Shown here: one piece after another, positions 14,993 to 20,953 of the stretch
Layout: each line of letters starts with the position of its first letter
Numbering within the stretch: position 1 is the first letter of the stretch
Source: Shigella phage JK32
Sequence record: MK962753.1
Length of the DNA stretch: 64,000 nucleotides
Direction: 5' to 3' (one strand)
The notes under the pieces: model-generated
Database searches by the model: none
Seen by the model: the letters and a program-made list of their open reading frames with translations, nothing else
Told to the model about the DNA's origin: nothing
Program-made: the position numbers and the translations under genes

Positions 14993-15002
14993 CAACTAAA
15001 AA

Positions 15003-15030
15003 CAAAAAAGGCTACCCCGAAGGATAGCCC
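15003..15030 (-). terminator. Rho-independent terminator after Gly-rich gene
   Basis: Hairpin ggctaccccgaaggatagcc with flanking A/T runs. Confidence 0.55.
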
Positions 15031-15036
15031 ATAAAA

Positions 15037-15816
15037 TTACACGCGAGCACCGTAGATCGTGCCTACTTTATCCCAGCGAGGGGCATTGCCAGTAACAGCC
15101 TTACCAGCCGCTCCGCCATTATATTCCGACCCCTGTCCACGGATATTACATTTACCACCAGCACCACCAGCATCACCACCGTTACCGCCATTATATACAC
15201 CGTTGACAGACCCCTTACCTGGCGCGGAAATAGTACCAGCAGTAGCACCCCGTTCCATATTAGCAGACCCACCGGCAGCACCAAATGGACGACCGCCACC
15301 TCCACCAAAAGTCAATTTCATTTGTGAAAAAGGAGAATAATACCCGCCGCCACCGCCGCCACCACCGCCGCAAATAGCGCCGTTATTTGTGATGCGTAAG
15401 CGTGTGCCTATACCGTTGTTAATTGCATTACCACCAGCACCACCAGCGGAGTTATTGCCACCATTACCACCACGCCCCCAAACATGAACACCTGCGTTAA
15501 TGATCAATGTTACATATTCGTTTGTTAACGAGCTAGGGAAGTCAAGACAAGGAACGCCAGTAGATTGGGAAACAATATTACCTGTGATAGTAATTACTAC
15601 CGGAGTAGATCCTTGTGCTTTCATCCAGTTAATAAGAGTGTCTTTATTGTAAGAGTTACTAGCGCCAATGCTATAATGAATCTCTTTAGAGCGTCCGACC
15701 ATCGCCGACATATACGCCGGACGACCTAAGCGAACAGCTTGCATTGCGGCGCTCATCCACCGTTGACCAGTCTCGGACACAGCCGATGATCCGACCCAAC
15801 CTGCTTTAATTGCCAT
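15037..15816 (-). CDS. Glycine-rich protein with poly-Gly tract
   Basis: 259 aa; GGNGG and GGAGG repeats and a G9 run; N-terminal beta-rich domain. Confidence 0.6.
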   Translation of the reverse strand: MAIKAGWVGSSAVSETGQRWMSAAMQAVRLGRPAYMSAMVGRSKEIHYSIGASNSYNKDTLINWMKAQGSTPVVITITGNIVSQSTGVPCLDFPSSLTNEYVTLIINAGVHVWGRGGNGGNNSAGGAGGNAINNGIGTRLRITNNGAICGGGGGGGGGYYSPFSQMKLTFGGGGGRPFGAAGGSANMERGATAGTISAPGKGSVNGVYNGGNGGDAGGAGGKCNIRGQGSEYNGGAAGKAVTGNAPRWDKVGTIYGARV

Positions 15817-16812: not shown

Positions 16813-17147
16813 TTGTAACCCTCCTCTGAAAGCACATCCCAGATCGTTGCATCAAGGTGCATTAAATTCCACATAATAGAGTCATAACTACCGAAGCCAG
16901 AAGTAAAAATTACATCACACTGGCGATAGGTCTTATGAAAATCGGTGGCTGTATCTGCATCAATAGGCATATCGTCACCGGAAAGCACCAGACATTTAAG
17001 AATCATAACTCTGTTAGCCGTTGGCGCTTGCTTAGTCTTTTCAGCATATTTTTCGATGATCCGTTTTGCCTTTTCTTCTTTGATACGTCCAGACCAAATC
17101 CGGTTTCGGTATTGATTCATAATAATTTCAATCACATCATTTTGCAT
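16809..17147 (-). CDS. Hypothetical protein
   Basis: ORF track. Confidence 0.45.
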   Translation of the reverse strand: MQNDVIEIIMNQYRNRIWSGRIKEEKAKRIIEKYAEKTKQAPTANRVMILKCLVLSGDDMPIDADTATDFHKTYRQCDVIFTSGFGSYDSIMWNLMHLDATIWDVLSEEGYN

Positions 17148-17346
17148 TCTTCACGGTCTCCATAATTGTTTTGTAAGCCAGTTTAAGATGATCACCGAAA
17201 AACTTTGCAGTGTTACCCTTCGGATCGCGGAGCATGGTTTCTACGATCTCATCGGCAGTAACAATTTCTCCTTTCTTTGCTGCATGTCCTACCATATACT
17301 TCAAAGTTTCTTCGGAAGCAAGTGCTGCGGCTACTGGATTAATCAT
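17137..17346 (-). CDS. Hypothetical protein
   Basis: ORF track; ATG after conserved leader. Confidence 0.5.
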   Translation of the reverse strand: MINPVAAALASEETLKYMVGHAAKKGEIVTADEIVETMLRDPKGNTAKFFGDHLKLAYKTIMETVKNAK

Positions 17347-17375: not shown

Positions 17376-17404
17376 ATTATGCTATACCCTATTCCGGTTG
17401 TCAA
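17376..17404 (-). promoter_or_regulatory. Sigma70-type early promoter (TTGACA-17-CATAAT)
   Basis: Reverse strand TTGACA accggaatagggtatag CATAAT. Confidence 0.6.
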
Positions 17405-17416
17405 CACCTAAAAACG

Positions 17417-17444
17417 AAAAAAGCCACCCTTTCGGATGGCTTTT
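17417..17444 (-). terminator. Rho-independent terminator
   Basis: Hairpin agccaccctttcggatggct flanked by A/T runs. Confidence 0.55.
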
Positions 17445-17450
17445 GATTAA

Positions 17451-19589
17451 TTAAGGATTTCGGCCAGGGTAATGCTTAAATCGACCGTAACCAGTTTCAA
17501 TGCTCATATCTCGTTGACGCACAATCGCCCAATAACCGTTGCAGGAATCTTGAAGATATAGATCCTTACCTTTTAGGAACTCATTAAAAATAGTGATCTG
17601 CCAATCATAATAGACCGCATCAGCAAGACTACCCATCCAACCGTGCGGATCTTCCATCAGTTCGACAAGTTCATCAATTACCCAATATGGACAAGGGCTA
17701 AATTTACCCTTACTAAAATCGCTGAACATAGTAACGATCTTGACTTCCGGTCGAGGCTGATCGGGAATATCTGGACGTTTGTTAACTACGACTTGCACAT
17801 ATTTTGTGTAGCCTACAATTTCACCTTCATCTAAGTTAGTGTTATTGTTTTTGTCGGCAAATGCAACAAATTTGTAAACACCAGAATCGTTTAATGTTGC
17901 ATTAGCTTTACGATATACCGGAACACTGGAATCTGCAATAGGTAATTTAATACCACTTTTACTAAATTCATAGGTCGGCACATAGTTAGATGGCGGTTTA
18001 ATCATGGTTGCTTCCAGCACCAACGGATCACCCTCAGTAATTTGCACCGGATGCGGACCGTCAAATTCCATATTAGGAATTACTTCAACTTTATAGGTTG
18101 CACGTCCTGCAATATCATATCCGGTATGCGCACTATGAGGATCTCGGCTAGGGCTATCGCGATATTCATGAGACCAGATACCATTATGTTCTTTATCCGC
18201 CGCATCAGTAATCTTATATTCTTTCGTTTCAATCGGCAATTCTGTTACAAGAACATCGTTTTTCAAAATTGCTAACGAACGAGTTTGAGTCGGGTCATTA
18301 CTTGCTGGCGGTTCTGGATCAACAATTTTAATAACAATAGGTTCCCCAACCTCAATACCGCTATAATCATGCTCGACGTCATAGATATCTAACATACGGC
18401 GATCATAAAATAATGGGCGAGAAGTTGGAGTTCTCTGCGGATCATCATCACGCGCAGGAGCTACCAACAATTGCAGGGCTACACTATTATCATATTGCAA
18501 TTTCTCAAGACTAATACGGTCATAACCAGGATCACCATATTTCTTGCTTTGTAATTGCGTACCACCTAACATCCACGTAAAGTAGACATTATTTGTTAAT
18601 AAACCATAATGTCGGTTCCATGAATTATCAACAGGGGAAACTGGCATATCAATACTAACAGAAGACCCAGAAGGATAACGAAATTCAATAGCAGAAAAAT
18701 CTCGGCTAAAAAATTCGTTTTCCTTGACGTTAACGCGGAATCGATGGCGCTGACCATCCAGATACGATTCACTACTACCAGGACCATTTTCAACCTTATA
18801 GGAACGAATACAAGCGACATAATCACCTGCATCTGCTTCGGTAGCATGTTTCGTCACATATAAAGTTTTATTCTTTGATTCATAAACCAAAGTACCATCG
18901 CCACGTTCCAGACGATAACGAACTATGGTATGTTCAGCGTCATTTGGGGCATCGTCTTCTACAGTATAATAGGCAGGTGCATATTTTTGTACATTGAATA
19001 CAGCTAAATTTTCTCGAATTGTTGCTGTAAACGGATATACAAATTTAACATCACCTGTTTCGTCGCTTAATTCCATTCGATAAAGACCGGAAAATTCAGG
19101 CCATGCGAATTTTGCAATTTTAAATTCACGATGATCCAATCCCAAATCACCATCCACGGAATCAACTAGACCATTATTATAATACAAGTCAACAGAGATA
19201 TTAGCAGGAATATTACTACGAAAAACAATTTTCGCTTTAAGTTCATCACCAATATTAAATGATGTCGGAGGATATACATGTTCAACATATGGATTATCAA
19301 ATAACTTAAATGTAAAGTTTTCCGTGCCAATATCGATAGAATCACCACTAAATGATGTGTCGCCTAGCGCATAACCTCGAACGTTTACAGACCATCCGGT
19401 AACATCGTCTTCTTTAACGGAATCCAATGTAAATGTCGGAGAGGCACTTGTTGCTATAATCTGGTCATTTTTCTTCCAGACATAACCTTTTTTCGGTTTT
19501 GTTGAATCAGGGCTTTCATCAACAATACAGCAGCTAAAATCGTGCGGCATCCAAATCATATTATTGACCGTGGTGTTTACTACTGCCAT
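17451..19589 (-). CDS. Large multi-domain protein with Ig-like repeats and a distinct C-terminal domain
   Basis: 712 aa; Ig-like motifs DAGDYVACI and DSGVYKFVA; no recognisable catalytic motif. Confidence 0.65.
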   Translation of the reverse strand: MAVVNTTVNNMIWMPHDFSCCIVDESPDSTKPKKGYVWKKNDQIIATSASPTFTLDSVKEDDVTGWSVNVRGYALGDTSFSGDSIDIGTENFTFKLFDNPYVEHVYPPTSFNIGDELKAKIVFRSNIPANISVDLYYNNGLVDSVDGDLGLDHREFKIAKFAWPEFSGLYRMELSDETGDVKFVYPFTATIRENLAVFNVQKYAPAYYTVEDDAPNDAEHTIVRYRLERGDGTLVYESKNKTLYVTKHATEADAGDYVACIRSYKVENGPGSSESYLDGQRHRFRVNVKENEFFSRDFSAIEFRYPSGSSVSIDMPVSPVDNSWNRHYGLLTNNVYFTWMLGGTQLQSKKYGDPGYDRISLEKLQYDNSVALQLLVAPARDDDPQRTPTSRPLFYDRRMLDIYDVEHDYSGIEVGEPIVIKIVDPEPPASNDPTQTRSLAILKNDVLVTELPIETKEYKITDAADKEHNGIWSHEYRDSPSRDPHSAHTGYDIAGRATYKVEVIPNMEFDGPHPVQITEGDPLVLEATMIKPPSNYVPTYEFSKSGIKLPIADSSVPVYRKANATLNDSGVYKFVAFADKNNNTNLDEGEIVGYTKYVQVVVNKRPDIPDQPRPEVKIVTMFSDFSKGKFSPCPYWVIDELVELMEDPHGWMGSLADAVYYDWQITIFNEFLKGKDLYLQDSCNGYWAIVRQRDMSIETGYGRFKHYPGRNP

Positions 19590-19610
19590 GAATCCTCCTT
19601 ATAACTGAAA

Positions 19611-20057
19611 TTAAGCCAGTCGAGTGAGTTTATAAATGGTTTTAAAGCATAGAACTTTGATATCGTCTAAAACGCTCTGCAACGAGCTATCAACATCATT
19701 ATAAATCTCACTAGCCATTTGCGTTAACTCTTGCAAATAGGCAATTTCGCTAATCTCCTTGCGGACGACCAACGTTGGCTGATACCGACCAGTGATCCCA
19801 ATATTGGTTTCTGTGAAATTATCAACCAATTCTTGCATTTCAAGATAGAACTCTTCTAGAGCCTTATGTTTTGAATAAGACCCAGGTCCAGTTACCCCAA
19901 AATGCGCAGAATGCATATAAGTAACGCTCATTAGGCATTCACCAATAAAGCGGTCTACTTTATTAGCTTTTCCTTCCTCGGAAGTCTGCCTAAATTCACT
20001 GAATTTCATTATATCGATTCTCCATTTTATTAAGCACAATAAATTGATTTGCGGCAT
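19611..20057 (-). CDS. Hypothetical protein (rI.-1 position); start uncertain
   Basis: ORF track; internal MKFSEF possible true start. Confidence 0.45.
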   Translation of the reverse strand: MPQINLLCLIKWRIDIMKFSEFRQTSEEGKANKVDRFIGECLMSVTYMHSAHFGVTGPGSYSKHKALEEFYLEMQELVDNFTETNIGITGRYQPTLVVRKEISEIAYLQELTQMASEIYNDVDSSLQSVLDDIKVLCFKTIYKLTRLA

Positions 20058-20295
20058 ACTCTCCCATCATGAAACAATGTTTAGCATCCATACATTTACT
20101 ACGTGCGTATGTTTTCATTATGTGGTCATGAAATTTTTGACTTGTCTCCACCGATGGTTGTATTTTGTTTATATACACGATCATAGCACCGTCGAAGTAA
20201 TCAGTAAAGTCACCAACAGGACATTGATCGGCACTTACGCTACCAACTGCCATAACGCATATACCCGCAACGAGTGTTTTACGAATAAATGACAT
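19996..20295 (-). CDS. rI: Periplasmic lysis-inhibition regulator RI-like (antiholin)
   Basis: Signal peptide; similarity to recalled T4 RI; adjacent to tk as in T4. Confidence 0.6.
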   Translation of the reverse strand: MSFIRKTLVAGICVMAVGSVSADQCPVGDFTDYFDGAMIVYINKIQPSVETSQKFHDHIMKTYARSKCMDAKHCFMMGEYAANQFIVLNKMENRYNEIQ

Positions 20296-20356
20296 AAGTC
20301 ATTCCCCCAGATTAAAAATTTCAAGTATATTTATAATCTGGGGATATATTTACGCC

Positions 20357-20953
20357 TTAGTGGATAGATCCATCAATAAAATGTTTACGACAAACAGAAA
20401 CATATTTATCCTCTGCACCAACTTCTATTTGAGCACCATCGCGAATAACATTACCATCTTTATCTACGCGAAGGACCATAGTCGCTTTCTTGCCACAATG
20501 ACAAATACCCTTCATTTCGACCAGTTTATCAGCCAATGCCATTAATGCCGCAGATCCTTCAAATAGATTGCCCTGAAAGTCAGTGCGAAGGCCATAACAC
20601 AAAACAGGGATATTGGCATCATCAACCAGTGCACATAAGCCTAAAACATGTTCTTTAGTCATAAATTGGGCTTCATCTACAAATACAGCATCTGGACGCC
20701 AGCGATCCGGTCTACGCTTACCGAGTGATTCACGATAAACCAAGTCGAAAAGATCATCAGATTTAGTGAATGTGATCGCTGGAGCACTTAGACCAATTCG
20801 GGAAACAACTTCACTTTCTGAATCTCGATTATCAATCGCTGGTTTAAGAATTAATACTCGCATATCACGTTCGGTATAGTTATAAGCACTTTGTAATAAG
20901 GAAGTAGACTTACCAGCGTTCATAGATGCATAGTAGAAGTATAGTTGTGCCAT
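20357..20953 (-). CDS. tk: Thymidine kinase
   Basis: P-loop MNAGKS, VDEAQF, YGLRTDF, CHCGKKA zinc motif; collinear with recalled T4 Tk. Confidence 0.9.
   Translation of the reverse strand: MAQLYFYYASMNAGKSTSLLQSAYNYTERDMRVLILKPAIDNRDSESEVVSRIGLSAPAITFTKSDDLFDLVYRESLGKRRPDRWRPDAVFVDEAQFMTKEHVLGLCALVDDANIPVLCYGLRTDFQGNLFEGSAALMALADKLVEMKGICHCGKKATMVLRVDKDGNVIRDGAQIEVGAEDKYVSVCRKHFIDGSIH

Follow-up and report, generated by a model that had tools for sequence, protein, structure and literature searches.

A probable accessory Hoc-type head decoration protein with six predicted Ig-like domains, encoded downstream of rI in Shigella phage JK32

Hoc is a head decoration protein of phage T4 that attaches by its carboxy-terminal domain (C-domain) to the middle of expanded gp23* hexamers. 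The T4 vaccine and vector platforms use it as their main display scaffold, and in the phage-mucus adherence model it is the adhesin. Structures exist for its C-domain (PDB 8t1x) and, as a crystal structure, for the immunoglobulin (Ig)-like domains 1-3 of the RB49 Hoc. The published C-domain combines a four-stranded sheet with a three-helix bundle, and in the cryo-electron microscopy (cryo-EM) structure of T4 Hoc the residues W310 and N358 contact gp23*, while D313 pairs with R357, probably fixing a loop in a conformation that favours attachment; this loop, E355-S-R-N-G359, is highly conserved, binds very near the capsomer centre and touches all six gp23* subunits (PMC10385173). Fibres of the Hoc type have a reference isoelectric point (pI) of about 4-5, and Serratia phage Muldoon encodes a Hoc of 1174 amino acids (aa) with 10 Ig domains together with a second Hoc of 314 aa, Enterobacter phage PG7 two Hoc-like proteins (PMC10385173). 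Here we analyse a gene of Shigella phage JK32 (MK962753, 176,009 bp), an RB49-like member of the genus Krischvirus; the gene encodes a protein of 712 aa and lies in a window of 64,000 nucleotides (nt) from sequence record MK962753.1, the window being the whole stretch of DNA that was analysed. We consider it likely that the product of this gene is an accessory head decoration fibre of the Hoc type, displayed on the virion. The gene and the parts of its product are the following:

17451..19589, minus strand: gene of the Hoc-like protein, 712 aa plus stop codon, with an ATG start, as called from the open reading frame (ORF)
17778..19589, minus strand: six tandem Ig-like beta-sandwich domains (aa 1-604) from an AlphaFold2 model, with the approximate limits D1 1-98, D2 99-192, D3 193-291, D4 292-404, D5 405-504 and D6 505-604
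17454..17777, minus strand: Pro-rich linker (aa 605-617) and C-terminal domain (aa 618-712, about 95 aa), from alignment and model
17532..17714, minus strand: core of the C-domain (aa 626-686), which aligns to the Hoc capsid-binding domain and holds the helix-1 motif CPYWVIDELV and the loop QDSCNGYW

This long minus-strand ORF, which a first-pass annotation made from the letters of the window had placed exactly, gives a protein with 100% identity to the 'hypothetical protein JK32_00086' of phage JK32, and 'hypothetical protein' is the label of the gene in every record seen. Public data contained, besides this identical JK32 entry, 15 clusters of homologues with 43-83% identity, all of which, the entry included, have a length of 706-718 aa. 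The ratio of nonsynonymous to synonymous substitution rates (dN/dS) is 0.11-0.16 in comparison to three homologues, with dS near saturation, and 0.064 in the C-terminal part of the gene. Since the length is kept among homologues and dN/dS is low, the ORF is real and constrained, and on sequence comparison the gene is judged to be functional and under purifying selection. A chance ORF is ruled out by homologues of the same length at these identities and by the dN/dS values; a decaying pseudogene can likewise be dismissed, the gene being intact in all recovered homologues with a dN/dS of about 0.1.

The C-domain is the best conserved part of the protein, with 82% mean pairwise identity as compared to 59-74% for the Ig domains, and its identity still is 74% in a homologue with an overall identity of 44%. 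With profile PHROG 1149 ('Hoc-like head decoration') a match to aa 510-693 was obtained at E 4.4e-6, reaching the end of the profile (positions 971-1141 of 1150), and one to the last 112 aa taken alone at E 6.9e-5. A phmmer search of all PDB chains returned T4 Hoc as the top match, aa 609-687 being aligned to Hoc 284-361; the aligned segments are CPYWVIDELVELMEDPHGW in the 712-aa protein and CGWWVMDEIQKMTEEGKDW in T4 Hoc, and QDSCNGY stands against QESRNGY. A first hhalign comparison of the full-length family with nothing but RB49-type Hoc gave a weak result (probability 24%, E 8.6e-4), and a Hoc C-domain profile broadened to 40 sequences, including the short Hoc-like proteins of Yersinia phage JC221, phage EcS1, Klebsiella phage Metamorpho and RB43, gave a probability of 96% and E 4.8e-9 over aa 626-686 of the family C-domain, a match which is convincing only because the Hoc profile was broadened. 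Control profiles, reversed or column-shuffled, gave E values of at least 0.03, and a Hoc C-domain hidden Markov model run against the 395 ORF segments of the window picked only the 712-aa ORF (E 4.2e-6; next best 0.095). Several independent lines give one common alignment register for the C-domain and Hoc. Invariant in the joint alignment of both families are W636, W651, S682, N684 and G685, with D639 nearly so; W636, D639, S682, N684 and G685 correspond to W310, D313, S356, N358 and G359 of T4 Hoc. The equivalents of Trp309-Trp310/Asp313 in helix 1 of T4 Hoc are Tyr635-Trp636/Asp639, which do not vary within the 712-aa family, and many short Hoc-like proteins also read P-Y-W at this place. 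The T4 loop Glu355-Ser-Arg-Asn-Gly359 finds its counterpart in Asp681-Ser-Cys-Asn-Gly685, where Ser, Asn and Gly are invariant in both families and Arg357 is replaced. As judged from these alignments, the C-terminal domain, whose Cys (Cys633, Cys683) and Trp residues (Trp636, 651, 663, 687) had already been pointed out in the first-pass annotation, is a divergent Hoc capsid-binding domain.

For the remainder of the protein the AlphaFold2 model, built on the family alignment, has a mean predicted local distance difference test score (pLDDT) of 80 and comprises six Ig-like sandwiches, with pLDDT values mostly of 75-93. Foldseek against the PDB yielded as top matches six-Ig fragments of titin I65-I70, contactin-2 Ig1-6 and neurofascin (E 4e-19 to 1e-16). 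In the Pfam search of the 712-aa protein the Ig matches were all sub-threshold (Ig_3 with 17 bits at a cut-off of 30, Ig_2 with 15.9 bits at a cut-off of 27), and the backing for the Ig fold, which is a predicted one, comes from structure only. The earlier description of an Ig-like multi-domain protein therefore agrees with the structure prediction and its titin and contactin matches, Pfam adding sub-threshold matches only, and both motifs quoted in its favour, DAGDYVACI (aa 253-261) and DSGVYKFVA (aa 568-576), are present on predicted Ig strands. The pI is 4.9 for the whole protein, 4.5-5.6 for the single domains and 4.9 for the Ig part (aa 1-604), which carries a net charge of about -28; the protein falls within the acidic range of Hoc fibres. 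A multi-Ig build is common in bacterial adhesins as well, and the Foldseek matches include GhpA and cell-adhesion molecules, which would suit a secreted or host-surface adhesin or effector; yet neither a signal peptide nor a hydrophobic segment was found in the N-terminus MAVVNTTVNNMIWMPHDFSCC, residues 3-19 are modelled as strands of Ig domain 1, and no anchor or secretion domain was found in Pfam and PHROG searches. We regard such a role as very improbable, and a secreted effector in particular was rejected for want of a signal peptide. The first reading of the window had left the choice between a decoration protein, an adhesin-type protein and a host-surface effector; decoration gains support because the C-domain is a divergent Hoc capsid-binding domain, whereas the host-surface effector, with no signal peptide or secretion feature, finds no support.

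Carriers of the 712-aa gene are five of about 96 related phage records, namely Brandy, UPWr_E1, SSG23, SFHK24 and G2248. The flanking DNA is 90-96% identical to that of RB49-like phages (genus Krischvirus), and in RB49 itself the stretch 17450-19575 is swapped for 191 nt, in which no similarity to the gene was detected. Of the gene, Phi1 retains approximately the last 205 nt, which its annotation lists as ORF084.1 (L003:2573-2701), and the first 14 nt are kept in both RB49 and Phi1. In a metagenomic chimera of 118 aa (P0072) the last 62 aa of the 712-aa protein follow an unrelated N-terminus. ORF084.1 of Phi1 and the chimera are, to all appearance of their sequences, footprints of internal deletions, and the gene must accordingly be an old one in the lineage that was deleted repeatedly; such loss on more than one occasion shows it to be a dispensable accessory gene. 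Where present, it is a hot spot of divergence: its nucleotide identity to Brandy is 69-83%, that of the flanks 93-99%. A comparable hot spot is the gene of the Gly-rich long-tail-fibre adhesin gp38 (ORF 15037..15816, minus strand), with 69-76% nucleotide identity to Brandy over positions 15000-15500. The hypervariability of the 712-aa gene is the pattern expected of an exposed virion protein. The rI gene (about 20000-20250) is also more divergent, with 79% identity to Brandy.

Besides the 712-aa gene, Brandy has a canonical hoc (408 aa) and, between hoc and inh, a Hoc-like gene of 846 aa (MZ504876.1 105697-108237; L009:7698-10238). The 846-aa protein bears a canonical C-domain (WRRTSF...YWVLDE...ESRNGY; PHROG 1149 at 2.8e-52) and shares about 22% identity, in patches, with the 712-aa protein, and tblastn located its gene in five phage records, precisely those that carry the 712-aa gene. 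In RB49p168.2 (65 aa; L004:2195-2392) the last 39 aa are kept at 82% identity to the 846-aa protein, and for this reason we consider it a deletion remnant of the 846-aa gene. In two metagenomic contigs, of 174,881 and 170,147 bp, a homologue of the 712-aa protein seems to occur together with a canonical Hoc, the pairing being drawn from matching bp figures only. Within the 64-kb window of JK32 neither a canonical hoc nor the 846-aa paralogue was found. A set of up to three Hoc-type proteins is probable for the sub-lineage, the full set in one genome being shown only for Brandy, and the fibre encoded by the 712-aa gene would probably be the third of its kind.

Several observations weigh against a Hoc-type fibre on the head, and they concern the remoteness of the similarity, the model, the literature and the binding site. 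When 1.84 billion representative proteins were searched with a HMMER profile of the C-domain, only the family itself and one 118-aa remnant came up, with no link to Hoc, and by this measure the 712-aa family is a narrow one; a pairwise BLAST comparison with RB49 Hoc did not reach significance (E 0.086), the similarity being remote. Pfam gave no match to the C-domain, and the same Pfam copy also is blank for the C-domains of RB49 Hoc and of two further proteins (P0063, P0091). With the near-invariant alignment of the family itself, AlphaFold2 modelled the C-domain at low confidence (pLDDT 35-58). With Hoc C-domains added to the alignment, the pLDDT was 81.8 and the predicted template modelling (TM) score (pTM) 0.73; this model reads beta-beta-helix-helix-helix-beta-beta plus one extra strand, its topology agrees with the published Hoc C-domain fold, and in Foldseek T4 Hoc (8t1x_X) came out on top (probability 0.98, TM 0.48/0.53; next best probability 0.35 or below), a match that is supporting and at the same time partly circular, because the alignment contained Hoc sequences. 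In the literature we found no proteomic, microscopic or expression evidence for the 712-aa protein in any phage and neither proteomics nor cryo-EM for JK32 or its relatives, and the SSG23 paper does not mention Hoc, Ig-like or decoration proteins. Several residues, conserved among Hoc-like proteins, with which Hoc contacts gp23* or holds its structure are replaced: Tyr293 by Ile618, His295 by Thr620, Arg300 by Phe625 (these three assignments follow the phmmer register, MAFFT leaving the segment unaligned) and Arg357 by Cys (Lys in the homologue P0016). An invariant, family-specific segment, IETGYGxFKHY, takes the place of the usual C-terminal helix of Hoc and is modelled as the extra strand. 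Finally, in Brandy the same hexamer site would also be claimed by the canonical Hoc and by the 846-aa Hoc-like protein.

Because gp23-contact residues are changed, the Y-x-H motif of strand beta1 among them, and because up to three paralogues would otherwise compete in carriers that all hold the 846-aa gene too, a virion-displayed Ig fibre could be imagined which is anchored away from the gp23* hexamer centre, be it at another capsid site, at the neck or whiskers, at the tail or on a Hoc paralogue, and which would not compete with canonical Hoc. Such an anchor nevertheless seems unlikely to us, as the W/D motif of helix 1 and the S-x-N-G loop, the very element by which T4 Hoc reaches the six subunits at the capsomer centre, are kept, and Pfam and PHROG searches revealed no similarity to tail or neck attachment modules. 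Similarly doubtful, in our estimation, is a C-domain retargeted to another capsid site or binding mode through loss of Y-x-H, Arg300 and Arg357 and gain of the IETGYGxFKHY strand. If true, the Krischvirus sub-lineage with the long paralogues could show up to three Ig fibres side by side without competition, which would amount to a combinatorial, modular system of capsid-surface adhesion, whose modules are repeatedly lost, as in RB49 and Phi1.

The surroundings of the gene bear on its expression, and with it on the question whether the protein is structural at all. The features concerned are:

19594..19600, minus strand: strong Shine-Dalgarno sequence AAGGAGG of the 712-aa gene, 4 nt 5' of the ATG
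19611..20009, minus strand: rI.-1 (DUF5856), 132 aa following the RB49 annotation
19996..20295, minus strand: rI (antiholin)
20328..20335, minus strand: T4-type late-promoter motif TATAAATA, upstream of rI
20357..20953, minus strand: tk
17419..17444, minus strand: strong intrinsic terminator with 11 stem pairs and a T-run, 7 nt past the stop of the 712-aa gene

As the first reading had it, the gene sits between the tk/rI locus and small ORFs; it lies directly downstream of tk, rI and rI.-1, with 21 nt between the stop codon of rI.-1 and the gene, and it does end in a terminator, the strong hairpin and T-run listed above, which closes the tk-rI-rI.-1-gene transcription unit. The order tk-rI-rI.-1-gene is kept in JK32, in Brandy and in uncultured relatives with homologues of 61% and 43% identity; in these relatives the flanks match Krischvirus DNA over 30-51% of their length, with an identity of only 68-72%. 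The motif TATAAATA is kept at -712 to -750 from the ATG of the 712-aa gene in 5/5 loci compared, and the stretch from the motif to the gene has no predicted terminator; late co-transcription with rI by read-through is therefore plausible. On the other hand, tk, regB and vs, which are early and middle genes, lie in the same region and on the same strand, and TATAAATA was not found closer than about 750 nt 5' of the ATG, as would befit a protein with no structural role, intracellular or early, such as a factor of host takeover or anti-defence that re-uses Ig folds and a Hoc-derived domain. We hold this to be quite improbable: the late-promoter motif of rI is conserved with no terminator predicted before the gene, the canonical hoc of RB49 and Brandy likewise is without TATAAATA within 400 nt, the C-domain shares homology with a capsid-binding module, and the gene is as hypervariable as that of the gp38 adhesin. 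Fraser and colleagues are moreover said to have concluded in 2006 that Ig-like domains of phages occur almost exclusively in virion proteins. In RB49 the canonical hoc, too, stands apart from the main head cluster, and its strand is that of the 712-aa gene and the early neighbours; as it shares this strand and has no nearby TATAAATA, the position of the gene argues little against a structural role. To call the placement unusual, as had been done at first sight, was accordingly a weak claim, and the assignment to an 'early block' is correct for the location, in the early/middle region, but does not imply early-only expression, since the gene follows rI with its conserved late-promoter motif and no intervening terminator is predicted.

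Some further observations were made at this locus. The mechanical ORF of rI.-1 (19611-20057, minus strand, 148 aa) overlaps rI, and its family matches, to PHROG 858 ('starvation-inducible transcriptional regulator') and Pfam DUF5856, begin at Met17; the real rI.-1 gene probably is 19611..20009 with 132 aa. Immediately past the terminator a near-consensus sigma-70 promoter (17376-17404, minus strand; TTGACA-17 nt-CATAAT, 11/12 positions) probably drives the small downstream ORFs (17137..17346 onward). In the uncultured relatives with the 61%-identity homologue (L006:10246-11214, L008:3194-4162) a 322-aa cytosine DNA methylase (PF00145) is found directly downstream, where JK32 has small ORFs. 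An ARAGORN scan of the 64-kb window found no tRNA genes.

Taking up again the accessory Hoc-type fibre, which we favour, we infer the virion incorporation, the exact binding site, the expression timing and the ligands of the 712-aa protein as follows. The protein would be made in the cytoplasm, since it is without signal peptide, and probably late, from transcripts that start at the conserved late promoter upstream of rI and read through into the gene. Its six acidic Ig-like domains may form a flexible rod, for which simple scaling from the three-Ig, approximately 180 Å long T4 Hoc fibre suggests a length of roughly 30 nm, and the small Hoc-like C-terminal domain would anchor this rod to the head. 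Bound to mature heads, the protein would project its variable Ig domains outward, where they could let the virion adhere weakly and reversibly to the surface of cells or mucosa and modulate its charge, as proposed for Hoc. Up to three Hoc-type fibres raise the question how the paralogues share or partition the approximately 155 hexamer sites per head, and display work may gain a second, orthogonal capsid anchor in the divergent anchor domain. 'Hoc-like head decoration protein' can replace the annotation of JK32_00086 and of the homologues from Brandy, SSG23, SFHK24, G2248 and UPWr_E1; of these phages SSG23, at least, has already been investigated as a candidate for therapy.

In comparison to other decoration proteins, the T5 pb10 type (PDB 5lxk, 8zvi) also exposes an Ig-like domain on a decoration protein of the hexamer centre and shows weak Ig-level similarity to aa 515-579, a match of the generic Ig domain only (5lxk_A E 0.39, 8zvi_a E 0.77); the capsid-binding domain of pb10 is N-terminal and is not known to be related to that of the 712-aa protein. 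The 846-aa protein of Brandy, SSG23, SFHK24, G2248 and UPWr_E1 is likewise a long multi-Ig Hoc paralogue, which also persists as a remnant in RB49, but its gene adjoins hoc and its C-domain is canonical, unlike those of the 712-aa gene. With Hoc of T4 and RB49 the 712-aa protein has in common an acidic string of Ig domains followed by a small capsid-binding domain at the C-terminus, made up of a beta-sheet and three helices, the W-x-x-D motif of helix 1 and the S-x-N-G loop, as well as a conserved C-domain next to variable Ig domains, both proteins being dispensable. It differs from them in having six instead of three Ig domains and 712 instead of 376-408 aa, in a C-domain core identity of only about 21-28%, in being without the Y-x-H motif of strand beta1, Arg300 and Arg357 of Hoc and in its invariant extra C-terminal segment, and in its location beside rI.-1, whereas hoc lies between 24.3 and inh; in Brandy, at least, the 712-aa gene is additional to the canonical hoc. 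Muldoon and PG7 resemble the present case in having several Hoc-type proteins per phage and Ig strings much longer than that of T4, but their proteins were found by BLAST with the C-domain of T4 Hoc, whereas the 712-aa family needed profile-profile comparison, beyond searches at the level of HMMER. Multiple Hoc-like proteins and up to 10 Ig domains having already been described (PMC10385173), the 712-aa protein is a divergent further member of the Hoc type, of interest for its divergent anchor domain, for the probable set of three paralogues and for the repeated loss.

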